DNA of 64,000 bases from Octopus vulgaris (taxonomy: Eukaryota): positions 50,549,282-50,613,281 of the forward strand of contig OX597836.1 in NCBI GenBank assembly GCA_951406725.2, in the 5' to 3' direction. A program made the position numbers and the translations under genes. Within the stretch, counting starts at the first letter, position 1. Every line of letters starts with the position of its first letter. This document shows positions 9,473 through 63,550 of the stretch, piece by piece. The notes beneath the pieces were generated by a model that did no database searches, was not told the origin of the DNA, and worked only from the letters and a program-made list of their open reading frames with translations.

Positions 9473-9750
9473 TGCAAGAAGTATGCCCACACCACCTACC
9501 TCATTACTGTTACCTTCCCAGAAGATTTTATACCCATGTGCCTTGCCTTTGAGGAACTTGGTTGGAGCTCTTACCTTCTGCATACAACCTACATCAGCAT
9601 GCCTCAGCTCAAGTATCTCAACAATCTCGCTAGACATACATTTCAGTGTGCCTACATTGATAGTGCCAACTCTGAAAACTGGGAAAGGGACATGAGAAAG
9701 GGACATGGGAAGGGGAGATGGTATTCAGCACCTGGAAAGAAGGTTTCAAT
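9473..9750 (-). mobile_element. RTE LINE fragment (N-terminus of AP endonuclease)
   Basis: ORF 9425-9706(-) reads RVGTINVGTL..EIVEIL..ADVGCMQ..GGVGILL. Confidence 0.7.
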
Positions 9751-9767
9751 GATTGTTAAAAGATAAA

Positions 9768-17293: not shown

Positions 17294-17425
17294 ATGGACA
17301 AATGGGTTAAACGGACAGCCTTGGTTACTGGGGCTTCGTGTGGCATTGGTGCCGCTATATGCAGAAAGTTGGTGAAGTCTGGCATGAATGTTGTTGGTTG
17401 CGGAAGAAATGTGCAGCGCATCCAA
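17294..17425 (+). CDS. DHRS11: DHRS11-like B coding exon 1
   Basis: MDKWVKRTALVTGASCGIGAAICRKLVKSGMNVVGCGRNVQRIQ, then gtaatt donor. Confidence 0.92.
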
Positions 17426-23400: not shown

Positions 23401-24540
23401 TATATATATATATAAATATAACCACTATGTGGTCGACTCTAGCACTAAAAATAGATCCGCTAGGTTTCAGCCATGAAGAATTGTTTCCGATGAAAGTTAG
23501 CACGACTACTAGTGCAAACGAACAGGGCAAATAAAAATAACAAAAATGCAGATTATTAATAGCGAAACAATTGTCCTGAACTAATCTGCATTTTTGTTAT
23601 TTTTATTTGCCCTGTTCGTTTGCGCTAGTAGTCGTGCTAACTTTCATCGGAAACAATTCTTCATGGCTGAAACCTAGCGGATCTATTTTTAGTGCTAGAG
23701 TCGACCACATACTCTCTTATATTTATGTATAAAATTTATCGTAATCCATGTTTTTTATGCACTAAGCCACTTGGTGTTAAATGGATGTACTATTAAATTA
23801 GTATCCAATTTTCTCATCCTTATTAGTTGATTGATATAAATATATATATATATATATATAAACTAAAATCATTGAACAAGCAAATACAAAGTCAACCGCA
23901 TGTCATTTCATAATTCGAACATTTAATTATAGAATAAACATATAATCCGCAAGATGGAACAAAATTCATATGTACAGCACGTAATAATAATAATATAATA
24001 TTAATATGGTTTGGTGCAAGAAAAATTCTTGTTAAAACTTAGAATTAATATTCAAGCGATTCAAAGAGAATACATTTATAAGGACGTAGAAAGTAAAATA
24101 TAATATAAGTAATATATAAAAATATATAGGTAAATAAAAATATAGGCATATAAAAATATATAAAACATATATAAATATATATACATATGGGAGCATATAA
24201 AAATATAACATATATATATATATATCGTGTAAATAAAGTAAAATAATGTTCATCGTTTAGAAATCTTAATCGGTAAAATAAGCCTTATATATAAGAAGGA
24301 AATCATGTTTACTTATCCCTATGGCCATTTCAGGGGTGTATTATGTTTAAAGCACTAGGGTGCATTTCGATAATACCTCCTTTGTCAGGGGAAAAAACAT
24401 ATATATAAACGCAAAGATAGCCATCACGCACCAGGCCCGTACGGTGTTGTTTGCTTTCCCACTTTGGTATTCATGCACGGATAACCCAAAGGACAAAGCA
24501 GTGAAGAATTTTTTTCCTTTTAAAAGCAGTAGAGGAAGCG

Positions 24541-24571
<31 letters not shown>

Positions 24572-27500
24572 TTCAAATCAAATTAATTCCAATGAATTAA
24601 AATTGAACTAAATTGACTTAAAAGGAGCCTCCGTGGTTTCAAATCCTGCAAAACTTAAATACTTTTATTTTTCAATTTATTTACTTTCTATATACTCAAA
24701 AAGAATGGGTTTCCTTAACTAAATTAAACTGACTTAACTGGGTTAAAATTAAATTAAATTAAATTGAGCCTTCGAGGTTTCAATTCCTGCAATATCTAAA
24801 CCAGTTATTTTTATTTTTTTACAACTTATCTTTTCGTAAATCCATTACTTACTACAATTTATTTTATTCCCGTAGATTTTCAGGAATGTAGAAGAAAATT
24901 TATGTACGCAAAAGGGGATAACGTCCGTAAATTTATTCAGAATGTGCGGTCCATAACACCTAAGGATGGTAAGCGATTCCCTTATACATAGCCTACACTT
25001 GCTGATGTTTCTCTTGAAGTTTGGGATTTTAGAAATGATGGACCATTCTAGGAAATAATTCTTATTGTTCTTTCTCAGGTTGTGTATATGCGATGCAAGT
25101 GTAGTTGAGTTAAAGTATTTTTCGTTATTAAAAGAGCTCATGTGTGACCTATATCGCGCCTTAAAATCCATTGTACTACCTATATAAAATTTGTTTAGAT
25201 TATCTACGTCCCTAACTACACATTTATATATTACGTTGGTAACCAGACATGAACCATCTAAAGGACATAATTTGGGTTTCCTACAGTTACATGTCTTATC
25301 GGGGCCTTTCCTAATTTTTTTCCTATTATTATCCTTACTTATTTTATCTCCAGTTCCAGACGGGTTTTCGCTCATTCCTTCCCTCTAAACGAAGAGATTT
25401 TTGAGCAACATGCACCAGTGTATAATAATGCCCTAAGTTTAAGTGGTTTCAAGTCTAAAATATTCTATATCCTTAATACTAGACTAAAAAACAGGATGGC
25501 TGGTTTGCCAATTGAGCAAGTTGCAATTACTACAGATAAATACAATAATAAATACTGTAATAATAATAGGTTTTTGAATAATAATTATAATAAAAATAAT
25601 ACGTCTAGGAATAATAAGAGGCCTTTAAATAATAATATGTTTAGGGATAACAGCAGTAAGGGTAGGTATAAGGAAATTAAAAATCCTGATAAGAAGTTAA
25701 ACAAAACAGGAAGCTCACGGCCTAGAATAAGGGAAGTTATTTGGTTCGCTCCCCCTTAGAGTAAGGAATTTACCAAAACTATTTTTTAAGATTCTGAAGG
25801 AAAACTTCCCAAGGGACCACAAATATTATAGCATCTGCAATAAGTCGACAATAAAATTCTCCTATTCTGTAATGCCTAACTTTGCTTCCATTATTGTATT
25901 TATCTGTAGTAATTGCAACTTGCTCTATTGGCAAACCAGCCATCCTGTTTTTTAGTCTAGTATTAAGGATATAGAATATTTTAGACTTGAAACCACTTAA
26001 ACTTAGGGCATTATTATACACTGGTGCATGTTGCTCAAAAATCTCTTCGTTTAGAGGGAAGGAATGAGCGAAACCCGTCTGGAACTGGAGATAAAATAAG
26101 TAAGGATAATAATAGGAAAAAAATTAGGAAAGGCCCCGATAAGACATGTAACTGTAGGAAACCCAAATTATGTCCTTTAGATGGTTCATGTCTGGTTACC
26201 AACGTAATATATAAATGTGTAGTTAGGGACGTAGATAATCTAAACAAATTTTATATAGGTAGTACAATGGATTTTAAGGCGCGATATAGGTCACACATGA
26301 GCTCTTTTAATAACGAAAAATACTTTAACTCAACTACACTTGCATCGCATATACACAACCTGAGAAAGAACAATAAGAATTATTTCCTAGAATGGTCCAT
26401 CATTTCTAAAATCCCAAACTTCAAGAGAAACATCAGCAAGTGTAGGCTATGTATAAGGGAATCGCTTACCATCCTTAGGTGTTATGGACCGCACATTCTG
26501 AATAAATTTACGGACGTTATCCCCTTTTGCGTACATAAATTTTCTTCTACATTCCTGAAAATCTACGGGAATAAAATAAATTGTAGTAAGTAATGGATTT
26601 ACGAAAAGATAAGTTGTAAAAAAATAAAAATAACTGGTTTAGATATTGCAGGAATTGAAACCTCGAAGGCTCAATTTAATTTAATTTAATTTTAACCCAG
26701 TTAAGTCAGTTTAATTTAGTTAAGGAAACCCATTCTTTTTGAGTATATAGAAAGTAAATAAATTGAAAAATAAAAGTATTTAAGTTTTGCAGGATTTGAA
26801 ACCACGGAGGCTCCTTTTAAGTCAATTTAGTTCAATTTTAATTCATTGGAATTAATTTGATTTGAAATTTTTTTTTTACCGCTTCCTCTACTGCTTTAAA
26901 AGGAAAAAATTCTTCACTGCTTTGTCCTTTGGGTTATCCGTGCATGAATACCAAAGTGGGAAAGCAAACAACACCGTACGGGCCTGGTGCGTGATGGCTA
27001 TCTTTGCGTTTATATATATGTTTTTTCCCCTGACAAAGGAGGTATTATCGAAATGCACCCTAGTGCTTTAAACATAATACACCCCTGAAATGGCCATAGG
27101 GATAAGTAAACATGATTTCCTTCTTATATATAAGGCTTATTTTACCGATTAAGATTTCTAAACGATGAACATTATTTTACTTTATTTACACGATATATAT
27201 ATATATATGTTATATTTTTATATGCTCCCATATGTATATATATTTATATATGTTTTATATATTTTTATATGCCTATATTTTTATATACCTATATATTTTT
27301 ATATATTACTTATATTATATTTTACTTTCTACGTCCTTTTATAAATGTATTCTCTTTGAATCGCTAGAATATTAATTCTAAGTTTTAACAAGAATTTTTC
27401 TTGCACCAAACCATATTAATATTATATTATTATTATTACGTGCTGTACATATGAATTTTGTTCCATCCTGCGGGTTATATGTTTATTCTATAATTAAATG

Positions 27501-30500
27501 TTCGAATTATGAAATGACATGCGGTTGACTTTGTATTTGTTTGTTCAATGATTTTAGTTTGATATTTTTGTCTCTTCCAATAGAGCACTTCTATTGCAGT
27601 CCTATTAAATCTTTTTGTTCCTGACAAGAAACAATTATTGTATCGATATACGTATATATATATATATAGATAGATAGATATGTGTGTATATATGTATAAT
27701 GCACATCTGTGTGTGTATGTAATGTCTGTATACATGTGCATGCATACACAAACACACACATATATACAGGGGCGTTTGATTATAAACATGCATGTATAGA
27801 GACATATGTATATATTTATATATGTGTGTGTGTGTGTGCATGGGTGTCTAAATATGTTTTCCTTGTATGGTTGTGGTTTTGGGGTACAAAGAACATACCT
27901 ATTATCCCTTTATGGTCTTTATGGGTTATCAAAGCAATACTCCTTTGCTGTTGAACAATACTCAACATTTGAAATAAAAACTCAACGTTTCTCTTGATCA
28001 ATTTCTTCTCTTCTTAGTCCATCAGTCCAGGTTTAGTGGACACAGAATTTGCCTCTCGTCTATTTCCAGACAGAAAAGAAGTTCCAAAGAGAGATTTTAA
28101 GGTGTGTATTTTCTTTTCTTATGTCTACCGATTATAGGTGTAGAAGTATTTGAAGGACAATTCATGTCTATAATCTATCAATGCATTTTATAGAGATTGG
28201 ATGGCTGAACTAGTCGGTTATTCCAATTGAGCTAAATGATCATAGATCAGGAGTTTGGATTAAGAAAAGAATGATACAAGGGTAACATTTACAGTTAAAG
28301 ACTGGAAAATAGAATTGGATAAAAGCACTTCAATAGGCTGTGAGGTTGGGGTATTTGCTTTTCAATCAAGAGGTCTCAGGTTCAGACCTACTACGAGGTA
28401 CTTTGGGCCAGTGCATTTTACTAATAGGCTCCTGATCAACCAAAACCTTGTGAATGGATTTGATAGTTGGAAAATGAAAGAAGCCTATTATGTGTACATG
28501 TAGCCTTGTCCTAACGTTGCATTAGGGTCATAGAAGCAATGTTGTTTGTTTGAAGTCTTCTGTGGATAAACGTGTCCAGCCACGGGGAAGTATTATCTTA
28601 CTTGCAAACAGGTGACAATTGCTCTCAGGAATGGCATCCAACAATAGGAAACCAGCCTCAACTAATTTCGTCTGACCCTTGCAGACATTGAAAAGTGGAT
28701 GTTAAATCATGATGACGATGACAGCAATGGATTGTCAGAGTTCATAGAACTTTGAACAAAATAATTCATAGCATTTGCTTATGTCCTCCTTTTATATTCT
28801 GTGTTCAAATCTTGTCCAACTGGAATTTGCTGTCTGTAAAATAAGTCCCAGTAAAGACTGAAGTCTGTATATTGGTTCTACACTTCAAGTGTGTGCCCCA
28901 GCACGGGCTGTAAAAGAAGAAAATAATCTTTAAATTTATATAAGAAATTATTATAGTTATAAGGGCTTTTCTTAATTCTGTGTCTTGTAAAAAGTCTGTA
29001 TTAGCCATGATTTCCTGGTCTCAAGTTCATGTCCTTATCGAGGTGGTCTTATCAGAAGTTATAGCCATTGTTTAAGTTAAATGATGCGTAACAAAGACCT
29101 TGATTCATTATACTACTACTACTACTACTACTAGATAATAATAATAATAATAATAATGATGATAATGATAATAATAACTGGTACTTATTTCATCGACCCC
29201 AAAAGAATGAAAGGCAAAGCCAACACTGGTGGAATTTGAACTGACAACATAAACATGGACGAAATACCACTAAGCATTTTGTCCAGGCAGCTAACAATTC
29301 TGCCAGCTGACCGCCTGATGATAATAAATAATAATAACAACAATAACAACAATGATGATGGTTTCAACTTTTGCCATTAAGGCAGCAATTTTAGGAGTCG
29401 ATTAGATTGACCCCATATTTATGTTCTAGCACACACAGATATTGGTAATGAGACTGGACGCAGAAAAGTTTGGTAAAATTTACCTTCCCAATGAGAACAC
29501 AAGTGTTTCCATGTTTTAAAGAATTCTCTTCTTACAAAAGACGTTTTTTTTTCTGGCACAAGTTTAGTCTCTCCAAGTAAATATTTCATCTACCAAAGCC
29601 TTCACTACTCTCCAAATAACTCTTTAAATATGTTTAGTCATAAAAGTGTTTGGATTGATCTGTGGTTTGAATTTCTCATTCATTTTTCAGATTCTTGAAT
29701 CTGGTGATGTAGCTGATGCAGTCCTGTTTGCACTTCAGGTACCCAAACACTGTGAGGTGGGTGTCCTTTGATCTCTTTTAATAACCCCTACTTTGTTGAG
29801 ATTGCAACAAAGATATATTTGTTGGTGGGTTGAGGGGAGGAGCAGAGTGTTGCAATGAACGAGGGGGAAAATGTTTACAGCAAGTGAAGCAGTTGCACAG
29901 TTTGTGTGAGATGTGCAATGGCAGCAGTTGTTGAATTGTGTAACTGGAGTGGAATAAGTTCATGCAGCCATTGGTCTTGGTTGGGCTGTGATGGCTGTCA
30001 TCATCTTGGTCCCTAGCTGATGCTCGCTGGCTTCAGCCGTATCACGACGACTCTCAATTTAGCAGATAAACAAACTATAGCTAATGTCTGTCAAAGAAAA
30101 TGAACAAAAGGCAACATTGTTAATGACAATCTGTTTCTTCAAGAATTTGAGTGGTCATTTGTTTGCTGACATGACCATGTTTGTGTTATTTTTGATCTGA
30201 ACAGTAATTCAGGTTCAATTCCTAGGCAGTGAGTTGGTGCCTATGCACTTTACCAAATATTCTTGCTCTTAGATTATTGAGTAATCTGATAATACAAATT
30301 CTATATCATCTACTTCATATAGCGCCTAGATGTTGGGAAAGTACCATCTACAATAAACTGAGGCTGACCAATGCTTTCCTCATCATTATCATTTAATGTC
30401 CATGTTCGATGCTGGCAAGTGTTGGCTGCTTTGGCTGGACCAGATGAGTTGGAGGACTGCATCATTCTCCATTGTCTACTTTGGAATGGTTTCTACAGCT

Positions 30501-30883: not shown

Positions 30884-33587
30884 AAAACTGACAAAAGCAA
30901 AACGAACAGATCGTCCATTTTCCACTTGACAAGGACACAAGAGAGCATTTGATCACATATGGACCTTGATCTCTGCTTCAGAGCAACCATTTTTTTAAAG
31001 ACACTACTCCAGTATGACTACAATGAGTGAAACAAGTAAAAATTAAAGACATCTTGCCTCGTATCATTAATGTCTTATGAAATTCTATTCCTTTCTTCTT
31101 CTCCTCTTTTACTCTCACTTTCTTTTCTCCCCTAAAAGAAAATTCTAGATGTCTCTAAAATAGTTGAACTTGTAAAAGAAGGTAGCAGGGAGCATTTTGT
31201 ATTATTCATTCATTCATTTATGTCTCCCCATAGAAGACAGGGAATCTATTTCTACACACTGGAGCTCCTTACAGTGGAAGACCTGGTGAGATGCATATAC
31301 TAGAAGTCCTTATTTATTGATGCTGGTGAGGCATCCACTACCAGGGAGTATAAAAAGACTCCATAAGATCAAAAGACTTAGCACCCTTCAAAGCTGACCT
31401 CCTAGACATAGTAGCCAAGGTCCTCTAGACCTTTTCAAATTAGATTGTAAAAAATTGACATTGGAACTTTTAGGAATTCATAAAACTGACATATAATGGT
31501 AGAGGCATGGCTGAGTTGTTAAGAAACTTGCTTTACAACTGTGTAGTTTCTGGGTTCAGTCTCACTGCACAGCACCTTGGACAACTAATGGCCCTGGGTT
31601 CACAAATGTCTTGCAAGAAAATTTGGTGCAAAGAAACTGTGTGGAAGCTCAATGTGTGTGTGTATACATATAAAATTGTGTGCATTTTTGTCCCCTCCAT
31701 CACTGCAAGAACTAATAAACACAAATTATAGAGAGGAGAATGAAACTGTGCTCCATATTGTTCCTTTTTCTCCCAACCATTTTTCACATCCAGCAGATTC
31801 TTGTACCAATATTTCTAAGCCTCTTTCTTCTCATCATTAGCCAGGCTAAGTGTGCTGTTACTGATAATTCAAGCCCTCTCCACCACCCGACATCTTCATT
31901 TACCTTCTGTATATTGGTTCTACACTTCAAGTGTGTGCTCCAGCAGGGGCTGTAAATTATTCCCCAATCGTGATTCTGCTGATTTTTTTCTTACAGACCC
32001 TTGGCAAACAATTTCTTTCCTGCTTCTCTTCAAGCTACAGGATATAGTTCTTTCCTACCTGCTCTCTCTTCCAGTATTTCCTTCTCTCTCTCTCTTTCAG
32101 CCTTTATTGCTCCATCTACAGTGCCACGGTGGCACCATGTTGCCTTATATCATCTTACTGCAACAACTGAACTTGTCTGTAGCTTTTGGTAGGTTGTGCC
32201 GTAAAACTCTCACTTGTCCTCTTATAAATTTCCTTTCCATTAATCATCTTGTTTCTTCCAGAATAATTCTAAACATAAATTTAGAAAAGAAGACATGTTC
32301 CATTTAACCCCGTCTCCTTTCTATCCCACATTCATGTCCCTATTGTCCCCTTGTATGTTGTTGGTGTGACTAAGGATGGCAGTGGATCTCCACTCAGTAT
32401 TCTCTCTAAAGTGTTGCCCGTCCCACTTGACTTTTGGATTCCTCAGAGCCCAGTCTGGAGCAATAACTTGGACCAATTTTATAATGTGAAGATAACTTCT
32501 CTCAACCAGCAGAAGCAATCTCCATCCGAGGTCACCCAACTGCTTGAAACAGCAGCAAAATCTCCCTCGCTCAAGACTTACCTGTTATAAAGTGGTCTTT
32601 TGCTACTGTTGTATCTGTCTTTTGTATGACGGTTGTCAACAGAATGTTTTTCTATCTGGCACTGTATGACCCCAAGTCGTACACTGTTATCCTCAAAAGT
32701 CCACTCAGTATCACAGTGTAATTACCTGCTCAGCCCAGTCATGACTCTCAACACAGTCTACACATACTCTCCCGATACCAGCTGACGTCACCTTACTTAT
32801 AGTGACTGGGTCATTCGACTTGTCACGTGGGAGAGGTGTACCACTATTACTAATTCCCTACAACATTACCATCTTAGAACAAGAAAGATGTATTGAATCA
32901 TTATTTAACATTTGCTTCCCAAGCTGGCATGAGTCAGATGTTTTGATGGGGTTTGATGGGTCACAGAAGCTGCATCTGGCTCCAATGTCAGCTTTGGCAT
33001 GGTTTCCCTGGTTGGATGCCCTTCCTAATGCCAACCACTTTACAGAGTGTACTGGGTGCTTTACTTTCCTGACACTGGCACAAGTGAGGTTGGCAAATAA
33101 CTCGCAAGACAAAGAAACGGAAAGAGAAACGGAACAATGAAAAGGAGGGTCCCTGGCAGTGAGGAATAAGTAGATAAGCAACAAAAAAAATAAATTAAAC
33201 AAAAGCCAATCAGTTGAATTACACATATTTAATTAATCCAAACATTTTTACACCTAAAAAAGACAAACACTACATTGGTTGGTTAATTTCCAGGTGATTG
33301 TTGTTGTTGTTGTGGTGGTGGTGGTGTTGTGGTGTTGTTGTTGCTCTCCAAGTGCTTTGTGTCTTTCTCAAGGTTTGTGAAATCAGCTTCATTCAGTCCT
33401 ACCAAAACTAACCAACCTATCAAGTGTTTCTTCTTGTTTTGCTAACAATCTTTTGTCATTTTTATAAGAAGAGAGGGAAAGCGGGGGATAAAGTAAAGGG
33501 ATTTCTTTTTTGTAAATGAGTAAATATATATTTTTCAAACAACCATATGAAAGAAAGAAAGGAAAAAAACCATAGGTAGGTACCAAC

Positions 33588-33661
33588 AAAGACAGACAAT
33601 TTATCCAACTACAGTCAACTAAAACTAGTTTTCAACAATAGCCTTCATCCAGTCTGTCTTT
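33588..33661 (-). promoter_or_regulatory. SECIS element (type II) in the GPx 3' UTR
   Basis: Minus strand: aaagacagac-tgg-ATGAA-ggctattgttg-AAA-acta gttt tagt-tgactgtagtt-GGAT-aaatt-gtctgtcttt. 10-bp helix I, AUGA/GA core, 11-bp helix II, unpaired AAA and apical mini-helix; begins about 70 nt after the stop. Confidence 0.9.
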
Positions 33662-33733
33662 TGCAGATTAAAAACCCAAAGTTTTTATCCTCTCCAGGTG
33701 TTAAGTTAATCTTACAGGTCAGTCTCCAGGCAG

Positions 33734-33766
33734 CTACCACAATTTCTCTAAGTCCTTCTCGATCGA
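33734..33766 (-). CDS. GPX4: GPx4-like last coding exon ([10 protein letters not shown])
   Basis: tttttctctttcag acceptor, TAG stop at 33734-33736; resembles the VIEKDL terminal exon of GPX4. Confidence 0.88.
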   Translation of the reverse strand, partial: SIEKDLEKLW

Positions 33767-36700
33767 CTGAAAGAGAAAAAAAGTTAAAAAAAAAAAAACG
33801 ATTCAGAAAGATTACATTGAAATAATTATTTAATTTATATTTTAATGACAATTAAAAGAAGAAACCACGAGTTACCATTTGATCTAGTTCAATATCATCA
33901 TCATCAACATTATTACATCACTAGCAGTATCGCCCAGTGTTGCTCAGGTTTGTTTCGATCCTTTAGAATTGGAATTTTTGAAAAGTAAAAATTCTGCATT
34001 ATGTAGCTTGTTATTCTCTTTAAGTGGACATTTTTCTGGTTGAAATACACTGAAAAATCGCGACACAGCAGTCAAAAAATCGTAATAAATAGGGATTTTC
34101 ATAGAAAAAAAGCACCATTTTGATGAAAATAATTTTTGGTGTTAATATGGTCCAATTTGAATTTTTTCTTCTACAGAAGGAAGTGCAAGCCTTCTTCTAT
34201 CATACTCTCAATTTTGGCCAACTTGCGCTGCAGAGTCTTGGAGGAGGTAGAGTTAGTTGAAGGCTACCAAACCTGCCATACACAGACAAGAAGTTATATA
34301 GAGAGATTTGATGTCCACTTTTCTATGCCTGCAGGAATCAGATAGAATTTGCCGAGGCAGATTTCCCAGGTTTCGACGTCCTTTCTGTTGCCAACCGTCA
34401 ACTGTTTCCAAGCAAGGTTAATATTTCCCATGGCCAGACATGTTTTTCCATTGAAAGAGGAAACCAACAACCTCACTTGTTTAACAGTGATGCTCCTTTA
34501 CAACCATCATGTAATATCAGGACATGGGCGTACATACACACACACACGACATGCAGTGGGACTGAACCCCAAATCACATGGCTAGAAAGCTAGCTTGTCA
34601 ACCACACGGCCAAGTCGATTCAGTTTCATTTTAAATATGGGAAAAGAAGGGAGCAGAGAGAGGGGAAGCAGTATAGAGAATTAAGGGTCAACAGATGTTG
34701 CTTCCGATAGGATCAGAAATAAATAGGAAGACTGGAAATGAAACAATGGATGAATGTTAATAAGGAATAGAGATTAAGTTCAAAAGAGGGAGGCCAAATA
34801 TTAAAAATATACGAAAGTTGTGGTGAAAGGAGAGGATTTCAAGTTAGCACAAAAAAAAAAAACCCCCAAAAAAAACCAAACAAAACAAACCAAAAAGAGA
34901 AAAAAGCAGAGCGATTTGAACTTGGAAATTGGAATTGCAAACACTGAAATGCTACCTGACTTCTTTAAAACCACATTTAACATTTTTTTTTTTAAAAAGA
35001 GGAAGAACACATTAGGAAAGTCAGATTACTGAAACACCTTTGATCATAGGAGATCTGCTTGATCAGGATGGACCTGGGGTTAAACAACTAAAACATCATC
35101 ATTCTAATTCTTGCCCCATGGTGGTGATGAAAATTTTATTTTATTTTCAGGGAGAAGAAAAATTTAAATGTGTTTAAACTTACCTTAGGTTCCTGGTTGG
35201 GTGCAAAGCGCTTCACAGGTGTGCCGTCTTTGTTAATGAGAAATTTGCTGAAATTCCACTTGATGGCACTGAAATGATAAACAGAGTTGAATGACACAGG
35301 CATAATGAGCAACCATCTTCACACCAAATTCTACACTTAGATTAAAACCCAACCCTGCCCAGTCTAGCTTCAACTGCTCTTGTCAGCTATTTCTCTCGTC
35401 ATTATCAGGTGCCATCCGCTCTCAGCAGGTTCAATACCAAGGAGATGCATCTGGCTCTCTTCTCTGCCATTCTTACACATTCACCACTTAACAGTTTAGT
35501 CTAGTTGATCTTATCAAACCAGTTTGTTCTCGGTCTTCTACTCCACCATTTGCCATTTATCTTTCCATCTCATCTTTGTATACTTTCTACTTTTTTGGCT
35601 TTTAATAATTGAGAGTAATAATCATTTTGTATTTGCTAGTTGTAGCACTTCTTCAGCAGTTCTATGTTTTGTCCAAGATATTCTTAACATTCTTTGAAAT
35701 GTCCACCTTTCAAAAGCTTCCAGTTTGTCAGACTGTTCCCATCAGTGTCCCTGTTCCTTCACCATACAATGGCTGCATCTAACACTTAGACAGTCTTTCT
35801 CAGGTTTCTGTATGTATATATATACACTAGCAGTATCACCTGGTGTTGCTTGGGTTTGTTTCGACCCTTTAGAATTGGAATTTTTGAAAAGTAAAAGTTT
35901 TGCATTATGTAGCTTGTTATTCTCTTTAAGTGAACATTTTTCTGGTTGAAATACACTGAAAAATGGCGACACAGCAGTAAAAAAATCGTAAAAAATAGGG
36001 ATTTTCATAGAAAAAAAGCACTTTTTGATGTAAATAATTTTTGGTGTTAACATGGTCTGAAGGAAGAGCAAGCCTTCTTCTATCACACTCTCAATTTTGG
36101 TGAACTTGCGCCGCAGGGTCTCGGAGGAGATAGTGTTAGCTGAAGGCTACCAAACCTGCCATACACAGACAAATTCAGCTTTATATATAGAGAGATATAC
36201 AATCCTTGCTGTTAAAGCCTTTGACATGTTTGAGTCTAGATATTTTCCCTTGCAATACATATATATCAATTATCCACCAGACCATATATCATTATGTGCA
36301 ATGCAGAATTGATTGTCCTTAATGAAGGTGAGAGAAAAGTTTGGAATCTTTTGCTCTTATATTTTTGTTGCAAACATTCACTGGCAATTATATTTCTTTA
36401 AATTTAGCAATAATTACATGGGTACCTTTGCCCTCTGTACATGGTTTTAAAAATTGCTCCTAAAATTAATAAGATTTTTCTAGATAATCAACAATGTATT
36501 TAATATTGCACATTAAAAAACAAAAACATTGAAAGATAAACAAATAGGTTACACACACACACACACACACACACAGAGTGGTGGTGGATTGCTGTCGTGA
36601 ATGATTGGGGTTTAGTTGTTTAATCAACTGAGTTATCTGCTCCTGAATTAAGGTGTAAGGGGCTGAACATTGTACAGATTCGTAACCCTGAATGTAAATC

Positions 36701-39700
36701 ATTGGAAGGGTCAAGCATGACAGGGCTATACCTTCTTGAATTGCTCTTAAACTCCAATTTATCACAAAGAAAAGACACCAAAGACAATGGAAACTTTTTA
36801 TGAATTGGCCAATTTTTTTTCATCTTATAAAAGAGAAGTGAATCTGTCTATTTGTCCAGCACAACATCTATGAGAGGGAGGGAAAGAAGGGCAAAATCAA
36901 AATATACATTACAACATACTTTTTGAAAGAGGGGAGGAGAAAAAGTTGCGGAGAGAGTGTGTGTGTGTGAAATAGATAAATTGATAGATAGACAAGTAGT
37001 GATTTCACCATAGTAACTAATACGTTTTGATTTAACACACAAGAAGTGCAAATCTGCCAATACAATGCAACACACTTCAAAAGAAGACTATAAGTATATG
37101 TGTATATAATATATATAGTTATTTCTTTAGTAGTTTGTGCATGTGTTTCTTTCTTTCAAAATGCAGACAATGCAACACAGACTTGAAAAAAACTTTCACT
37201 CTGAATAGAAGAATGAGGAAAGAAAAGGTTGCTGTTGATAAATACAGTAAGAGAGAGAGAGAGAGAGAGTGTATTGTGTGTGTGAAAGATAGATATATAA
37301 GTAGTGTTGTCACCACAGTAACTAACAAGCTTTGATTAAAAATGCAGGAATTTCAAGTACAAATCTGTCAACAAGAAACAAAAACTGTTTATATATATAT
37401 ATATATACAATCTTGTTTTTGGTTGTTTGTGTGTGTATTTCTGTGTCTTGCAACATATAGACAATGCAGCATTAAAAAAAAAAGACTTTCACTTTGAACA
37501 ATTTATGAACGTACATCCATGATTCACAAATATTTTTTCCCAGCAGTGGAGCAATCAGCAACAACCTAGCTTCATGGAAGCAAGAGAGGGAATCTTCTTA
37601 CCAGAAATCTCTTCTGGGAAAAGGAATAAAATATATCTTTTTGCATTAATTTAATAATTTTTTTGTTCCTTTTCAACAATAGAACTCTTAATAATCTTTG
37701 TATTAACTTGTCATTTTTGATGGTCCCAGATACCTTTAATCTTTTACTTGGTTGAGGCATTAGACTAGGGCCATACTGGGGCACCACCTTGAAGAATTTT
37801 AGCTGAATGAACCCCAGTTCTTTTTTTCCTATTTATTCTATTGGTCACTCTTGCTGAACTGCTAAGTTACAGAGACTTAAACAAAACCGACACTGGCTGT
37901 CAAGTGGTGGTGGAGGGACAAACAGACACACACATACACAATGGGCTTCTTTCACCTTCCATCTACCAAATCCACTCATGGAATTTGGGTTGACCAGAAG
38001 CTTTAGTAGAAGGAACTTGTGAAAGGTGCGATGCAGTGGGACTGAACTAAGAACCATGTGGGTGGGAAGCAAACTTCTTAGCCATTCCTGTGCCTCTATA
38101 GAAGGAAAGACCACAGCTGTAATGCTTTTGGTCATACAGCACTTCAATCTAGGCCAGGCTGGAGCAAAACATTAACAAAAAAGAAAAAACCCAACAGCTA
38201 ATGGAAATTTAAATGGATAAGAGTGGAGTTTTGTTTGACATAAATTAAAACTTACTTCCATAATGATCCCTTCAGGACACGCTGAAGATCATACCAAAGA
38301 GGATGTGCATCGGCACCATTGACGTTGATCTTACTAAACATGTCGAAGGTCACATTATATCCCTCGGCAAACTTTTTTATGTCCTCATTACTGCCAGGTT
38401 CCTGAAATGTTCAAAGAAGAAAATGATAAAGAAAGACAGGTGATTGTGTGTTTGTTAGGCAGCTTTAGTCACAAATCAAAAATGGATCTTGAAATTTCCA
38501 AAATGTGATGTAAAACGAGTGAATTCCACAGATGTTGATGAGATAAAGAAAATTATTTTAATAAGGGGCAGCAGAGGGGTCCCTTATTTTTAACTTATTT
38601 CAGTCATTGGAATGCAGCCATGCTGGAGCACCACCTTGAGCTTTTCGTCTTTCTTTTGTATGGACTTCCACACAGTTTCCATCAATGAAATTCACTCACA
38701 AGACATCCATTGGCTCAGGGTCTTCATAAAAGTACCTGCCTGAGGTGCCACACAGAGGCACTGAACCTACAAGTATGTGGTTGCAAAGAAAGTGCCATAA
38801 CCACACAGCCAAGCATGCACCTACAGGAAGATAGGTTCTAAAAGACAAAACCAAATATTGAAAATTTAACAAACCTGACTTCCAAATTGATTCGATGGAA
38901 ATGCAAGAATTCGGAGACCTTTTGATTCCCCATACTTCTCGTACAATTCCTGTAGCTGTCTGTAATTCAAATCTGTCAAACCTCATTTACTTGCTACATT
39001 AACAATTAAACATACATGGCCCCTGAAATAAAATAAAGATAAAAAATAAACAAAACAATCAAAACAAAAGTGACAGGCACAATGATATGGGTTGGATAGG
39101 TTTATACAAGATCTATTTTACTTGAGTTTAAAAATTTACAGCATTTCAGACTTCATTGGTTGTTTCGGCAAGATTTCTACGGCTGGATTCCTTTCTTAAT
39201 GCCAACCACTTTAAAGAGTGTACTGGGGGCTTTTTATGTGGCACCAGCACCAACAGGGTCAGCAAGCACCTTGCAAGATATAAAAGTCAAAAACCCCTCA
39301 ACTGAGAGGGATCAGTAATATTGGGGTATGTGTGTGTGTGTGGGGGTGTGTGCCAGTTTTAAGATTCAAGGTAAAGAGGGGACATAAATGTTTTGTATTG
39401 TGGTTAGATGGGCACTCCAGTTGGAAAGGAGAGTGAATGACAGATGGAGAGATGTTGGGACATGCCCTTAGGAACATTGGTGGTGGGGAGAATGGGTAAG
39501 ATGTGATACAGAGATTTGGAATGAGCGGGATGGTTGACATGTTAGAATCTAAACCTTATATGGCCTACATTGTTGAGATGGCAAGAATTTTGGTGAAGCA
39601 ACAACACAGAACCCTGCCTCCCCTATCACAAGATGACCTATCCACAGCCCTCATTTCTGTGCTGTTCTCACCCCAATCACAGTAAATGGAACGGCCAGCT

Positions 39701-41230
39701 GGCATACATAACACATTCTTGGTAATTAGTTTGATTACAGAATTATTGGTTAATTAAAAGTGTTTTGTTTCAATGCTATCCTCTGCTACACAACCTTATT
39801 ACTCAGTACAGTGTGGAGACAAATGTAGATATACAGAGAAACAGGGGGAAACCCCTTGACTTTATATAAATATAAAGACAAAGGGTTTTCACCTGTCCCT
39901 GTATCCAATTCACTGAGGCCCAAATAACTGTTTCCAATTCTGGCACAAGGCCAGAAACTTTGGTGGATGAGGAGGGAGGGTATTAGTTGATTACACTGAC
40001 TCCAGTACTTGGTATGTAATTTATCTTTTAGAGCTTAAAAGGATAAAAATTAAAGTTCACCTCTGTGAGATTTGAACTTACAATTCTGCTGATTGATCGT
40101 CCAGTTATAAATAGTGTCTCCACTGATGGGTTGATCTCAGTCATTAATGACATCCCAATACAGGATTGAAACCAGTCCAGCTGATTACTCTTTCATAGAG
40201 ATAAGGATGTTCTTGATATCCTTAAGAAGAAACTGGCTGATCAGTGTTGAAATGGCCTTGACCATATAGATAGAGGCATGTGATTTCTGGTTAAATTCCA
40301 ATGTGTGGCACCATGAGCAAGTGTCTTTTGCTACAGTCCTGTGCTAATGTATGCCTTGTGAGTGGATTTGGTAGATGGAAACTGTGTGAAAGCCCACCCC
40401 TCCCCACCATTTATCTCTCTTCACTACTGAGGCAGCCATGTATCTCCTGCTCCCTTGCAAGAACCCTTATTTCCAACCCTCTCTCTATTCTGACTGACCA
40501 GTTCTTGTCAAAGAGTCCAACCCATGCTAGCATGTAAAACAGACATATGATGATGATGATGATATACATATATATGTCTATATGTGTGTCTTTATGTCTG
40601 TGTTTGTCCTTATAACTTAGCGGTTCAGCAAAAGTGGCTGATAGATTAAGTACCAGGCTCAAAAGATAAGGACTGTGGTTAAACTGTTCCTTTCAAGGTG
40701 GTGCTCCAGCATGGCAGTAGTCCATTGACAGAAACAAGCAAAAGACATATCTGTTTGCACTGAAATGACCTCCTGAGTCAAAGCAACAACAACATGACTC
40801 ACATAACAATGAGAGTCCCTGCATCAGACTCCAAAACACTGCACCACAGTGAACACTAGAACACAAACCTAGCCTGATCATCAGGCATGGTCAGGTGGTC
40901 ATGAAGCTTACTTTGGAACCAGGTGGCTCCAGGTTCAATTTCACTTTGGGCAAGTGTTCTTGTCTACAGCTTTCAGTGGAACAATACTCTGTGATTGAAA
41001 TTTCATAAACATAAGCACAGAAACAGACATAGTTTATATCCTGTCTGACCGAACTATCTCTTCCTCCACCAACTTCCACTTTGCATCTTGAGATGGGAAG
41101 TTGGAACATTCATGCCTTTTCTAATGATAGCTGATTAATACACATATAAATCAATCACCAACCTGTACTTTTCCATTGACACTTCATTGCCATCAATGTC
41201 GTTGGCCTTGTAGCTGTAAAAGTCGAATCC
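33734..41230 (-). CDS. GPX4: Selenocysteine glutathione peroxidase, GPx4/PHGPx-like, 5' partial; complement(join(33734..33766,35184..35268,38256..38401,38875..39022,41163..41230)); TGA=Sec at 38983-38985
   Basis: Spliced product: [159 protein letters not shown]. All three GPx signatures and the U/Q/W/N tetrad are present; GT-AG introns with matching phases. Confidence 0.92.
33921..34306 (-). mobile_element. Non-autonomous Helitron-like element
   Basis: Minus strand has 5' TC, subterminal GC hairpin and CTAG 3' end, inserted between A and T; similar to 35827-36195. Confidence 0.72.
35184..35268 (-). CDS. GPX4: GPx4-like exon ([28 protein letters not shown])
   Basis: cag/gtaag, 85 nt, WNF.KFL signature. 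Confidence 0.93.
35827..36195 (-). mobile_element. Non-autonomous Helitron-like element
   Basis: Same family as 33921-34306; TC...CTAG termini at an A/T site. Confidence 0.72.
37720..38096 (-). mobile_element. Diverged family 1 SINE
   Basis: Recognisable head (cagtgggactgaac..accatgtg) and tail (ggccatactggggcaccacc). Confidence 0.65.
38256..38401 (-). CDS. GPX4: GPx4-like exon ([12 protein letters not shown]...AHPLW...GSLW)
   Basis: ttcag/gtaag, 146 nt; [17 protein letters not shown] motif. Confidence 0.93.
38875..39022 (-). CDS. GPX4: GPx4-like catalytic exon with Sec codon (NVASK-U-GLT...[11 protein letters not shown])
   Basis: tttcag/gtttgt, 148 nt; the only in-frame TGA falls exactly at the GPx redox residue. 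Confidence 0.93.
41163..41230 (-). CDS. GPX4: GPx4-like exon ([23 protein letters not shown]), most 5' exon found
   Basis: ttttgcag/gttggt, 68 nt; DIDG..V...KYRG motif, phase 2 junction fits the next exon. Confidence 0.9.
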
Positions 41231-41375
41231 CTGCAAAATAATAACAATGATTATATGTGTGTGTGCGTACATCCCATCAATTTTCAGTTATAACTTACCT
41301 GAAGAACTTATACACCTACAGATGATTTTACTTAGTTTGATGTGGCTTTTCTCAAACACAGCAATTGCCAGAATG

Positions 41376-51075: not shown

Positions 51076-52012
51076 TTAACTATAATAAAAGGTAACATTT
51101 TTCACGCTCCAGTCAGATTGGTAAACAGAAAGTAAAATAACAAATGGAGTGCGAGTGAGTGACAGCCAGAGATGCTAAATGCAGGTGAACTGTGGTGAGA
51201 GGTTTTACTCTGCAGTAGCTGGTATTTTAATCAAAATTAAACTGCAAAGTTTATCAATTTCAAGTACATTTATGTGTGTGTGTGTGTGTGTGTGTGAGAA
51301 ATTAAATATTGAACTCTTTTTTTTTCAAAATATTATTCATATAATATTTATAAATTCTCTCTATATACTTTTGTTTTTAAAAATTTTTTTGTGTTAGTTG
51401 TTTTTCTATGATTGCGCTTCCTGAAACAAACCCTTATTTCTTTTTCCAAGTAAAGGTTAACAAAATTTACACATCTTCCAAACAGAAAATTGCTGATATG
51501 AAGTTGTCAACATCAATTCCAGCATTCTTTCTCACAAATGTAAGCATGTATGTGCACATATGCACATGGATGGGCACCTTGGGCAAGTGTCTTTGGCTAT
51601 AGACCACAGCCAATTAAAAGCCTTGTGAGAAAATTTGGTATGCAGAAACTGAAAGAAGTCCATTATACACACATGATCCAAATCGGATGTGCAATCTATG
51701 TGGATGTATTTTCAAAACTTTCTCTGATTTAAAAAGCCACATCAGATGCTATGATGGTTCTAAGGTGTAGGAAAAGGGAGGTGGTCAAACTCTGCAGAAG
51801 GACCACCACACACACACACATTGCATAATAGTTGTAACCAAGTATCCCTGTCAAGCAAGTGGTGTCTTTTTTTTGTCTCCAATCTACTATGAAAGTATAT
51901 CTGGCCATGACGAAATATTACCTTCCCTGGGAAATGGTGGAGGCTGGAAAGAAGGGCATCCAACTGTAAAAAATCTGGCTGATTCATGCAAGCATAGAAA
52001 AGTGGAGGCTTC

Positions 52013-55790
<3,778 letters not shown>

Positions 55791-57330
55791 CGTCCGCTTT
55801 CCCGCGCTAGCACGGGTTGGACGGTTTGACCGGGTCTGGGAAGCCAGGGGCCGCACCAGGCTCCAGTCTGAATCTGGCAGGTTTCTACGGCTGGATGCCC
55901 TTCTAACGCCAACCACTCCGTGAGTGGATTGGGTGCTTTTTACGTGCCACCTGCACAGGGGCCGGAGGGTCCGGCATCGTCACGATCGGTTCGAGCATTT
56001 TAACGTGTCAGCGGCACATGGGCAACGAGGTCCGGGGTACTTTGGGGATCCAGGGTACTTTGGGGATCCGGGGTACTTAGAATGAGTAGGGGGTATGTGG
56101 AATTGCTGCAGAAAGCAGCCCGGGTCTTTGTAGTCACAGCATTTATCGTCACTGAGTAACGTAATTAGGTAGAGGAAAGAAATACAGATATTCTAGAGTT
56201 GAGTTGGGGAGGGGAGGTCCAGTTGAGGCGGGTAATATAGGAGGGCAACCAGTGGGGAAGGTTGGGGTAAGGAGGAACGATGGTAGGAAGGGTTGGTGTA
56301 GGTTCCTAAGAAATAAAGACATTCGTTATCGTCACTGAGTAACGTTATTAGGTAGAGGAAAGAATACAGATATTCTAGAGTTGAGTTGGGGAGAGGGGGG
56401 GTCCAGTTGAGGCGGGTAATATAGGGGAGCAACCAGTGGGGAAGGTTGGGGTAAGGAGGAACGATGGCAGGAAGGGTTGGTGTAGGTTCCTAAGAAAGAA
56501 AAACGTAGGATATTACGAGGCGGGAGGGTGCTAAAGGGGATAGTCGGAATGAGGCAGTGTCAGGAGGAAGCATAAGATCGGTGGGCAGTTGATGAGCTAT
56601 GGCGCTAGCAGCTTGTCTTTTCACAGTGAAAGCATATGAGGAGAAGGGGAGGGAGTAGGGCGTACCCGGTGTAGATGAGTAAGGCGTATCCGGTGTAGAT
56701 GGTGAGGACAGGGTATACTGGTATTGGTGGTGGGGGGTGAGGAACAGTGTTCACCGGTATTGGTGGTGGGGGTGAGAACAGTGTTCATCGGTATTGGTGG
56801 TGGGGGTGGGGGGGCGGGCGCACCGCCAATGGCTGAGAGATGGGAAGAGATGGGAAGAGATGGGAAGAGATAGGATTACGGCTTGAGGTAGCCTGGCCTA
56901 AGGTTAAATTTTGTAGAGAGAGAGATAGAAAGATAAATCAAGTTATGGCGAAGGCTTGAAAGTAGCCTAAAAAGGTTAAATTTTCGTAACAATGTATGAA
57001 GAAACGTAGTAACAACGAATAAAATAGTAAGATAAATTTTTAAGAACTTGCTGCGGACATCGAACGGGAGTTGAAATTGAATTGGGAATTTAAATTATAG
57101 AATCGTAATGGTGAGAGGAGGAAAAAAGACCGCCAATGGCTGAGAGATGGGAAGAGATGGGAAGAGATGGGAAGAGATAGGATTACGGCTTGAGGTAGCC
57201 TGGCCTAAGGTTAAATTTTGTAGAGAGAGAGATAGAAAGATAAATCAAGTTATGGCGAAGGCTTGAAAGTAGCCTAAAAAGGTTAAATTTTCGTAACAAT
57301 GTATGAAGAAACGTAGTAACAACGAATAAA
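55791..57330 (-). mobile_element. Composite non-coding element: RTE-type 3' end (55791-55990) plus body with internal tandem duplications
   Basis: 55791-55955 matches RTE tail 9800-9970. About 180-bp duplication (56144-56325 / 56326-56495) and about 200-bp duplication (56823-57025 / 57130-57330); flanked by (AT)n on both sides. Confidence 0.55.
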
Positions 57331-57391
<61 letters not shown>

Positions 57392-57392
57392 C

Positions 57393-57437
<45 letters not shown>

Positions 57438-57441
57438 TACA

Positions 57442-60400
57442 CTCAGTAACAGGACAAAGATCCCGTTCCTGAGAGACTTTGTTGCATGCAATCAAGCCTT
57501 ATGCATAGCACTTACAGAAACGCACCTGAAACCGGACATAGCAGATGCGGAGTTACACATACCACAGTATGCTGTACTACGGACCGACAGGAAAGAAAGG
57601 AGTCATGGAGGTGTTGCTATGTACATCCGTGAGGACCTCACACCCCAGGTCCTCTTGTCATACTCAAACTCGGTGTGTGACACACTAATTGTACATATTA
57701 GGCAACTTGATGTAGTTGTGTGTGCTACATATCGCCCTCCAGATGCCCCAAGCCATGTGGGCAAGTTTGAAGACTGCCTTATAAAAATAGAAGAAATTCT
57801 AACCACATTAGAACAACACATAGGTGTGCTTCTTATGGGAGACTTCAATCTGCCCAATGTCAGATGGCCCGAGGGCCTTTCTCTCCCAGGAATGACAAGA
57901 TGTGAACGAGGACAGGCGAGGTCCCTCCTGAACCTCATCAACACCCTGTACATGGAGCAGGTAATACTCCAACCAACCAGGGCAGGTAACACACTGGATC
58001 TCTGCTTCACAAATGACATGGATCTCATCCATAATGTGAAAGTGACACCGACACTACTCTCGGATCACAACATGATAGAGCTGACCATGTACGGGCCAAA
58101 AGAGAGCACGGACATGCAGCCTACAAGAAACCCTCAAAATCTTTCCAGCTTGAACTACCATAAGGCAAACTGGAAACAAATTGAGAAAGAGATCCTCAAA
58201 CAAAACTGGCCTAAATGTCTCTCCTCGCCAGACATCGACGTGAAACTTCAACAATTCATGTCTGTAATGCCCATATGCTACAAATGTGTCCCAGAGAGAA
58301 AGGCAGTACACAAGAACAAAATCCCCAGAGAGGAAAATTTTAATGAGACGGTGTACGAAAATTTCAAATCGCCTAAACAAACAGATTGAAAGCAGTGAAA
58401 AGTCCCACCTGAAAATAAAACTGTTGGAAATTGAAAAATGTCTGCAACTCTGACATGAAAAAGAAAGAGCAGACAAAGAAACCTGGGCTATAGACAACAT
58501 AAAATTTAACACCAGAGCTTTCTACAGGTGTGCCAAAGAAACAGCTACGGTGCACTGTAGAATAGGGCCACTCCTTGAAAAGGATGGCACACTTACAGGA
58601 AAACCAATGAGGGTAAGTGAAATACTGAATGAGCAATTCAAGCGTGTTTTCACTCCACCCCTTGGGCATCTCCAAATCACCAATCCAACTGACTTCTTTA
58701 CCACTGCAGATATAAAATCAGAGGCGGCGACGATAGATTACATCGATATAAAGGAAGACGATGTAACCAAGGCTATAGATGAAATGAAAACAGACTCAGC
58801 TACTGGCCCCGATGGATTCCCGGCAATCCTCCTAAAAGCATGTAAGAGAGTCCTAGCAAGACCACTGCAGTTCCTCTTTCAGAGCTTGCAGCTGGCAAAC
58901 TTCCAAGAAAACTGAAGGAAGGTAAAATATGCCCTATTCATAAAGGAGGTAGCAGAGCGGAGGCCAAGAACTACAGACCTATCTCTCTGACCTCACACAT
59001 CAGCAAGGTCATGGAACGAATAGTCAGAAGGAAGCTGATCACCTTCCTTGAAGAAAATGACTTGCTGCCCGACACCCAACATGGTTTCCGACCAGGGAGA
59101 AGCTGTTTAACTCAGCTCCTACAACACTATGACTGGGTGCTGAAACGGCTGCTCAACCACTCAAATGTGGAAGTGATATATCTCGACTTTGCAAAGGCCT
59201 TTGATAAAGTCGATCATGGAATGATATGTCACAAACTGCGTGATCTCAACATAGTTGGAAAACTGGCAGAATGGCTTCATGACTTTCTGAAGGATAGAAG
59301 TCAGGTGGTAGTAGCCAATGGGGCCACCTCCATTAACACACAAATAGTGAGCGGTGTTCCGCAGGGCACTGTTCTGGGACCACTACTGTTCATAATGGCC
59401 CTCTCAGACATGCCCTCAGCCACGCAGAGAGCCACGATCACAAGTTATGCAGATGATACAAAAGTTTCACAGGCAATACAGAACCCTGAGGACACTAAAC
59501 ACCTGCAATGTGAGCTGGACAAAATATACAAGTGGGCTGAAAAGAATAGCATGCAGTTCAATGCTGGAAAGTTTCAAGCTTTATACTATCAGCATGCAAA
59601 ACTGAATGCAATACCCAATGAATACACTGGACCCGGAGGATTGCAATCCCAGAGGCACAATCAGTGCGTGACCTGGGTATTCACATGAGTGATGACGCAA
59701 CCTTTCATGTACATGTTGCTAAACTGGCAATGAAATGTAGACGGCTGGCTGGATGGATTCTTAGAACCTGTAGAACAAGAGAACAAGAAACCATGATGGT
59801 CCTCTGGAAGACACTTGTCCTAAGCCACTTTGACTATTGCTCTCAGCTATGGTCACCATCCAGTGTCAAGTTGATCACAGAACTTGAGGCGATCCAACGA
59901 AGCTACACAAAGAAGATAGCCTCTGTGCAGCATGTAAGCTACTGGGAAAGACTCAAGAGATTAAAATTCTATTCCCTGGAGCGTAGGCGAGAAAGATATG
60001 CCATAATATACATCTGGAAGATCCTGGAAGGACTTGTCCCAACTTTGGCATCGAGAGTTACACAAATGCCAGAACTGGCGCCACTGCGTGGTGCCAAGGA
60101 CTCCAAATTTGCCATCAAGATGTAGGACAAGATACTGTGATAGCCTGGGCTTCCAAGGCCCACAGCTCTTCAATATCCTCCCGAAGAACCTGAGAGACCT
60201 GCATGGGGTGGATACAGATGTCTTTAAAATGAAACTGGATCTCTTCCTGTCAGGTATCCCAGATGAACCAACTTCACGGCAGGAGGTGCAGATGAGGGCA
60301 GCTGCATCGAACTCTCTCATGCACCAAATGGCAGTTGCTAAAAAGCATCCGTGAAGTAAACCAAGTAGCAACACCAAATGGCGGTGCCCCAGCATGGCCA

Positions 60401-60447
60401 CAGCTCATGAGCTGAAACTAGAAAAATCAAAATCAAAATCAATCAAT
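57442..60447 (+). mobile_element. CR1-group LINE, nearly entire ORF2 (AP endonuclease plus RT), frameshifted, inserted in (AT)n
   Basis: APE motifs ALTETHL, GGVAMYI, YRPP, MGDFN, LDLCFT, SDHN; RT motifs GPDG, NYRPISLTS, QHGFR, YLDFAKAFDKV, GVPQGTVLGP, YADDTK; (aatc)n-like tail. Confidence 0.92.
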
Positions 60448-63278
<2,831 letters not shown>

Positions 63279-63550
63279 CTAGCAGTATCGACCGGCGTTG
63301 CTCGGGTTTGTAAGGGAAATAACTATATAAGCATTTTTAGAGAGTTATAGCCAAAAAGTAGCAAAAAAATGCATTAAAAATTGAAAAAAAATTAAGGTAA
63401 ATTTTTCTTTAAATCGTTGACACATCGTAGATATTTTTAGAGAGTTACTTCCCTTATATAAAAGCAGAAAAAAATGCATTAAAATGGAAAAATATGATGG
63501 TAATTGTTTTTTAAATCGTAGACTCATCGTAATACCCAGAAGGGCTCGTT
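63279..63550 (-). mobile_element. Helitron-like 3' fragment, followed by an about 118-bp tandem duplication (63550-63800)
   Basis: aCTAGcagtatcgaccggcgttgctcgggtttgtaagggaaataactatataagc is the reverse complement of 51010-51075. Confidence 0.7.

Follow-up and report, generated by a model that had tools for sequence, protein, structure and literature searches.

A minus-strand locus of Octopus vulgaris, lying in a 64,000-nucleotide stretch of contig OX597836.1 (assembly GCA_951406725.2, positions 50,549,282 to 50,613,281; the whole stretch is called the window here, and coordinates count from its first letter), very probably represents the 3' five exons of a glutathione peroxidase (GPx) gene of the GPx4/PHGPx type. 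An in-frame UGA and a hairpin resembling a selenocysteine insertion sequence (SECIS) are both kept, and the product would likely insert selenocysteine (Sec) and likely act as a monomeric lipid-hydroperoxide peroxidase. The exons are spliced together, the UGA and the hairpin are retained on one contig, and the ortholog from Octopus bimaculoides has TGA at the same codon; a functional Sec enzyme in octopus is what these features suggest. A first-pass annotation had proposed a GPx4-like selenoprotein here and had named transcripts skipping the TGA exon, polyadenylation upstream of 33661, and close orthologs with TGT or TGC and without a conserved SECIS as observations that would speak against it; the proposal is supported, and wherever these observations were sought the outcome was in its favor. 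Papers are cited by PMC number.

The gene features on the minus strand are as follows.

41230-41163, minus strand: coding exon of 68 nucleotides, the first found in the window, internal, running from phase 0 to phase 2, with AG/GT ends
39022-38875, minus strand: Sec exon of 148 nucleotides, with the redox motif and, encoded by the final codon, the catalytic Gln; Pfam GSHPx E = 6.4e-19
38985-38983, minus strand: in-frame TGA, codon 36, predicted selenocysteine, from its place as single internal stop at the aligned redox position
38401-38256, minus strand: third exon, 146 nucleotides, with 100% identity to CAI9739801.1 and CAI9739802.1
35268-35184, minus strand: fourth exon, 85 nucleotides, with the WNF motif (Trp125, Asn126), from the joined frame
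33766-33734, minus strand: last exon, coding portion up to and including the TAG at 33736-33734, from the joined frame
33733-33350, minus strand: 3' untranslated region, at least this long, from contig cover without a differing letter in four of four runs

All five exons have AG before them and all four introns start with GT; along the minus strand the introns measure 2140, 473, 2987, and 1417 nucleotides, with phases 2, 0, 2, and 0. The joined exons amount to 480 nucleotides, that is, 159 codons and the TAG, and contain one internal stop, the TGA at 38985-38983 in the motif NVASK-U-G, which falls on the redox Cys when the frame is aligned with PDB 2v1m or with the human GPX4 construct P0155. 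Apart from the TGA, the frame is without a lesion. The phase-compatible minus-strand exons of the first-pass annotation and its placing of the TGA exactly at the redox position are thus both borne out, but the gene is incomplete as found: the exons stand, while an in-frame start codon and the 5' exon or exons were not found in the window.

Two single exons match Pfam GSHPx (PF00255) on their own, with 68 bits (Sec exon) and 40.6 bits against a curated cut-off of 27. Asn is a further catalytic partner of the GPx redox residue, besides Gln and Trp. The latter two are described as catalytic partners in PMC7824116, and in the alignment to P0155 the catalytic positions fall at U36, Q72, W125, and N126. 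When PDB chains are ranked against the query P0124, GPX4 chains come with E values of 1e-44 to 5e-42 and the 2v1m GPx with 7e-34, whereas GPx7/8 reach about 2e-17 to 7e-17 and GPx1 3e-17. Alignment with P0155 gives identity at 96 of 158 positions, and gaps are of 1-2 residues only. The insertion of tetrameric GPx is not present: GPX4 (5h5q) uses 118 residues where the query has 117, whereas GPx1 (2f8a), with 138 for 114, takes 24 more residues across the equal span. The predicted protein therefore belongs to the GPx4/PHGPx subfamily, nearer GPx4 than GPx7/8 or tetrameric GPx, in keeping with the earlier remark that its short loops match the monomeric enzymes. In the FPxNQF motif, Ser replaces Cys, as it does in 57 of 223 motif-bearing homologues fetched, a set biased by the query. 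The only Cys of the 159-residue part is at position 27, and the helix that follows Gln has none; a thioredoxin-type cycle with a resolving Cys is therefore unlikely.

The second half of the proposed selenoprotein signature lies in the 3' untranslated region, where the following parts were recognized.

33661-33588, minus strand: type II SECIS-like element, from the Rfam SECIS_1 match, fold z, anatomy, and shuffle control
33661-33652 with 33597-33588, minus strand: helix I, with 10 of 10 Watson-Crick pairs
33648-33644, minus strand: AUGA(A), the 5' core
33643-33633 with 33617-33607, minus strand: helix II, 10 of 11 positions paired
33632-33629, minus strand: AAAA, four apical A
33628-33626 with 33621-33619, minus strand: helix III, mini-stem CUA/UAG, from anatomy
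33606-33603, minus strand: 3' core GGAU, from anatomy

Helix I starts 72 nucleotides past the TAG, where about 70 had been claimed, and in the spliced RNA the AUGA sits 457 nucleotides 3' of the UGA. The perfect 10-base-pair helix I, the AUGA/GA core (AUGA at 33648, GGAU at 33606-33603), and the AAA bulge (four A at 33632-33629) of the first-pass annotation are all found; its 11-base-pair helix II is present but not fully paired, the 11 positions consisting of five Watson-Crick pairs, five G-U pairs, and one U-U mismatch. A UGAN/KGAW core together with an extra helix characterizes the type II layout in PMC3753652, and the core UGAA/GGAU fits it, with two helices, unpaired apical A, and helix III also present. 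In the minimum-energy fold, helix III reaches into two of the four apical A. The region is more stable than its composition predicts (z -3.60), none of 200 shuffles being equally stable. Rfam SECIS_1 (RF00031) aligns over its full model (1-64 of 64), covering the AUGA, AAA, GA, and apical mini-stem, with 30.2 bits and E = 0.00052, as the top of six matches in 33300-33800; a scan of the whole window against Rfam at the gathering threshold gave no match. A custom SECIS pattern, composed after the element had been seen and applied to both strands, finds one site in the 64-kb window, 33661-33588, and one match in a total of 60 shuffles of bases 1-51900 searched on both strands.

Evidence that these parts belong to one spliced molecule comes from public sequencing runs, 20 of 24 of which contain every sampled word of 33440-33770; none of the listed runs is recorded as RNA. 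Contigs from four of the 20 matching runs (X8, X9, X10, and X16, from four studies) were aligned to 32000-41375, and the results rest on 15 of 119 joints and 40 of 89 differences listed, in assembled contigs that drop rare variants. The 473- and 2987-nucleotide introns are spliced out at canonical ends in all four runs, and because splicing is canonical the contigs are taken to be transcripts. Record 7 of X16 joins 33350-33766, 35184-35268, 38256-38400, 38874-39021, and 41162-41232 without a differing letter or a gap; it holds all five exons and the hairpin, and UGA and SECIS-like element are therefore on one spliced molecule. Record 19 of X9 and record 1 of X10 likewise run from the Sec exon through to the hairpin on one contig. 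The Sec exon is listed for three of the four runs (X9, X10, and X16), gapless and without a differing letter, the X8 piece not being among those listed, and the fourth exon, 35268-35184, is listed for X9 and X16, where it is joined to the last exon. Positions 33350-33766 are covered in four of four runs without a differing letter, and the contigs extend about 44-53 letters past 33350 into a skipped simple repeat, so that the presumed RNA runs beyond the hairpin to at least 33350 rather than ending upstream of 33661. The signal AATAAA was not found between the stop codon and 32108.

Several observations weigh against a Sec-inserting GPx4 gene. The contigs of the four runs are RNA by presumption, and the junction 41163/39022 is directly displayed in one of the four (X16) among the joints listed. 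Helix II of the hairpin is weak and rich in G-U pairs, and the Rfam score of 30.2 bits lies below the gathering cut-off of 35, for which reason the element is not filed as an Rfam member despite its SECIS anatomy.

The spliced contigs also bear on the idea that editing from adenosine to inosine (A-to-I) converts the UGA of some transcripts to UGG (Trp), so that a full-length but inactive form is made. A-to-I editing is extensive in cephalopods, and that general background is what speaks for the idea here; the Sec exon is without a differing letter in three of four runs, and among the 40 of 89 differences listed none falls at 38983-38985, in contigs that would hide minor variants. Editing as the explanation is therefore extremely improbable, and low-level editing of the UGA may occur.

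The UGA is conserved in one ortholog and one paralog, both from O. bimaculoides. Table S1 of PMC8614756 lists O. bimaculoides GPx04B (ObimGPx04B, XM_014914499.1, LOC106869007) with the entry "Selenocysteine: Yes," and the window gene is its predicted ortholog. Compared by eye, 151 of 159 residues are equal, and the TGA with its context, the Ser in FPSNQF, and the C-terminal length are the same; apart from the species, the O. bimaculoides record, given in the table as coding sequence only, differs in including a 58-residue N-terminus that is missing in the window. The coding sequence thus has TGA where TGT or TGC might have been met. Across the Sec exon, 11 nucleotide differences were counted by eye, nine of them synonymous and five of these downstream of the TGA, a pattern that fits selection on read-through. 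The paralog O. bimaculoides GPx04A (XM_014922939.1) has TGA at the equal position (PMC8614756).

This conservation bears on whether the locus is instead a transcribed pseudogene, with a TGA that arose when a Cys codon mutated to a stop and with a hairpin due to chance. Such a reading could draw on the Rfam score under the cut-off and on a second octopus GPx4 paralog able to take over the function, but ortholog and paralog share the TGA in the records compared, the 159 codons hold no other lesion, 151 of 159 residues equal those of the ortholog by eye, and 60 shuffles of 51.9 kb yield a single match to the hairpin pattern. A pseudogene accordingly has next to no probability compared with a retained Sec gene. 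Octopus Sec GPx4 is already known through the O. bimaculoides ortholog GPx04B, and for a mollusc to have a Sec GPx4 is no surprise: most animal GPx04 kept Sec, except in insects and nematodes (PMC8614756), and GPx4 is included among the Se-GPx of scallops (PMC7824116). In Octopus maya a GPX4 transcript is heat-induced, the paralog not being stated (PMC6341066). A literature search returned no paper on the O. vulgaris gene or its SECIS, with most subscription papers, and supplements that could list it, outside the search.

The main value of the locus is as an annotation fix, the coordinates correcting the five 3' exons and locating the SECIS-like element. Over the third exon, identity is 100% to two O. 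vulgaris records, CAI9739801.1 (126 amino acids) and CAI9739802.1 (105 amino acids), whose odd N-termini map exactly onto the window; judged by these matches, both are models of this GPx locus or of an identical one. CAI9739801.1 is reproduced by a start in another frame at 41187 together with the following intron, and CAI9739802.1 by a start in another frame at 38933.

39015-38960, minus strand: 56-nucleotide "intron" of CAI9739801.1, which removes the TGA, reconstructed from the model

Both models omit the TGA and hence the active site, and proteomics or expression work built on them would miss the enzyme. Pyrimidines fill 10 of 20 positions at the acceptor of the 56-nucleotide intron, compared with 13-18 at the five real acceptors, and the intron is most likely an artefact of gene prediction. 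The UniRef model A0A0L8HRV8 from O. bimaculoides is without 21 residues around Sec, matching an in-frame acceptor at 38959. The earlier warning that automated annotation could truncate the gene or skip the exon therefore proved true for three models, two from O. vulgaris and one from O. bimaculoides, and PMC12822975 reports that 81-84% of vertebrate selenoprotein genes are misannotated in Ensembl and GenBank, naming the same error classes as are seen in the octopus models. The C-terminal tail of A0A0L8HRV8 was considered as a real last exon and rejected; its counterpart in the window, 33101-32984, is a dispersed repeat. In the same cluster, two Logan proteins begin immediately 3' of the TGA position, as one would predict were a stop present at this point in their transcripts too. 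Separately, 26 of 184 fetched motif-bearing proteins (e.g. P0125 and P0158) have Trp at the redox column and are likely Sec GPx transcripts in which the gene caller translated TGA as Trp.

Taken at face value, the public models would mean that the main product skips the TGA and lacks the redox residue, by the 56-nucleotide intron (CAI9739801.1), by an other-frame start past the TGA (CAI9739802.1), or by the in-frame acceptor at 38959 (the A0A0L8HRV8 pattern). Besides the existence of these models, GT and AG flank the TGA and a join of 41163 to 38959 preserves the frame. However, contigs of X9, X10, and X16 cross 39021-38874 gapless and keep the exon unaltered, the acceptor of the 56-nucleotide intron is poor in pyrimidines, the three models are mutually inconsistent and each loses the active site, and the codons skipped are conserved in the O. 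bimaculoides ortholog coding sequence with mostly synonymous changes. Skipping in the main product is thus very improbable; a minor skipped isoform may exist.

A Sec-inserting GPx4 would be expected to work as follows. In eukaryotic Sec insertion, SBP2 attaches to the core of the SECIS and brings in the Sec elongation factor together with Sec-tRNA. The spliced octopus transcript, carrying the in-frame UGA at the redox position and the hairpin in the 3' untranslated region, would bind SBP2 through the hairpin's core, and the UGA would then be recoded by the recruited factor and tRNA. Gln, Trp, and Asn would hold the selenolate, which would reduce hydroperoxides (ROOH) and be recycled, presumably by glutathione or protein thiols, and the enzyme would probably work as a monomer on membrane lipid hydroperoxides. 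The UGA lies 339 nucleotides 5' of the last exon junction, and nonsense-mediated decay is therefore expected where it is read as a stop, a possible route for selenium-dependent control.

The point of wider interest is whether GPx04B is secreted or located in the endoplasmic reticulum, a question raised by the N-terminus of the ortholog. Exon 41230-41163 aligns to residues 59-81 of P0243 and is not the gene's true first exon, and the O. bimaculoides ortholog record has 58 further N-terminal residues. An in-frame start codon was not found in the five exons or in the upstream flank, and the ortholog's first 58 residues were not found in 41230-64000 by tblastn of P0243, a 7-mer scan, or exact 4-6-mer scans, from which very short exons could escape; scans upstream of 41230 for residues 1-58 of P0243 gave low-complexity matches only. 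The contigs carry extra 5' letters, 102 in X16 record 7 beyond the first found exon and 393 5' of the Sec exon in X9, 68 of which would be the first exon. The 5' exons, coding for about 58 more residues by the ortholog, are most likely beyond the window. A candidate 17-nucleotide micro-exon at 41315-41299 (minus strand), 68 nucleotides 5' of the first found exon, follows an AG, is succeeded by the consensus donor GTAAGT, and is possibly an untranslated or minor exon. As coding sequence it was rejected, since it introduces an in-frame stop; the X16 contig matches only to 41232 and fits an upstream exon of the ortholog ending in AAG.

The N-terminus of the ortholog has a Kyte-Doolittle 11-residue mean of up to 2.9 at residues 10-20 and is plausibly a signal peptide. 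When residues 1-100 of P0243 were searched for homologues, 25 weak matches of 38-51% identity were returned, none labelled cephalopod. A Sec GPx with a substrate or compartment unlike that of vertebrate GPX4, for example a secreted form or one of the endoplasmic reticulum lumen, is a possibility with rather less than even chances, and is compatible with everything proposed above except the last step. The hydrophobic run in the ortholog, the differing N-terminus of paralog GPx04A in its record, and the hydrophobic extensions reported for flatworm Sec-PHGPx (PMC2679728) point toward it, whereas the N-terminal exons lie outside the window, RefSeq calls the ortholog "mitochondrial-like" in three variants, and translation from a second Met, residue 46, could give a cytosolic form. 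More specifically, it may tentatively be suggested that octopus split GPx4 into two selenoenzymes, of which GPx04B would enter the secretory pathway by a signal peptide and yield a cytosolic form from the downstream Met. If so, GPx04B would be a nearly Cys-free Sec lipid-hydroperoxide reductase in the endoplasmic reticulum lumen or outside the cell, a place where vertebrates have only the Cys-type GPx7/8 or the tetrameric GPx3.

Further features of the window were noted. Very long TA-rich simple repeats at 52000-56000 and 60400-63350, with GC of about 0.15-0.17, lie upstream of the GPx exons and presumably within the gene's first intron, and two similar copies of a dispersed repeat, densely covered by unrelated contigs, lie in adjacent GPx introns at 33920-34330 and 35830-36200 (minus strand). 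A near-perfect inverted duplication of about 3.7 kb occupies 23860-27560, with arms such as 24561-25367 and 26071-26877 that are 100% complementary; it has the same open frame on both strands, without a Pfam match, which looks like a Penelope-type endonuclease fragment, and the duplication may be either a genuine insertion structure or an error of the assembly. By eye, the frame at 8102-9763 resembles a Penelope-type reverse transcriptase, without a Pfam match, and pieces of retroelements of the long interspersed nuclear element type, with endonuclease or reverse transcriptase domains, are at 57307-60351 (plus strand), 10928-12082 (minus strand), and 5748-6668 (plus strand). The first exon of a short-chain dehydrogenase gene is at 17297-17422 (plus strand, opposite to GPx; Pfam adh_short E 3.3e-9).

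Among known systems, the hairpin shares with Rfam SECIS_1 the full model, the AUGA, the AAA, the GA, and the mini-stem, and differs in its score below gathering and its G-U-rich helix II. O. bimaculoides GPx04A has the GPx4 class and the TGA position in common with the window gene but, as far as its record extends, is a separate paralog with another N-terminus, a kept Cys (FPCNQF), and divergent downstream sequence. Intron positions and phases may match those of human GPX4, the octopus 85-nucleotide exon then corresponding to two human exons. Flatworm PHGPx genes described in PMC2679728 also have a Sec codon and a SECIS, with introns in common with vertebrates and one intron that is specific to vertebrates by comparison. 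Mammalian GPx4 is a monomer that reduces phospholipid hydroperoxides (PMC10298544). The vertebrate GPX4/PHGPx enzymes (PDB 5h5q, 2obi, and 6elw; P0155) and the octopus protein align at the redox residue, the Gln, and the WNF motif and are without the long insertion, whereas octopus has Ser in FPxNQF, a single Cys in 159 residues, two Sec GPx4 paralogs, and, in the ortholog, an N-terminal extension that looks hydrophobic.

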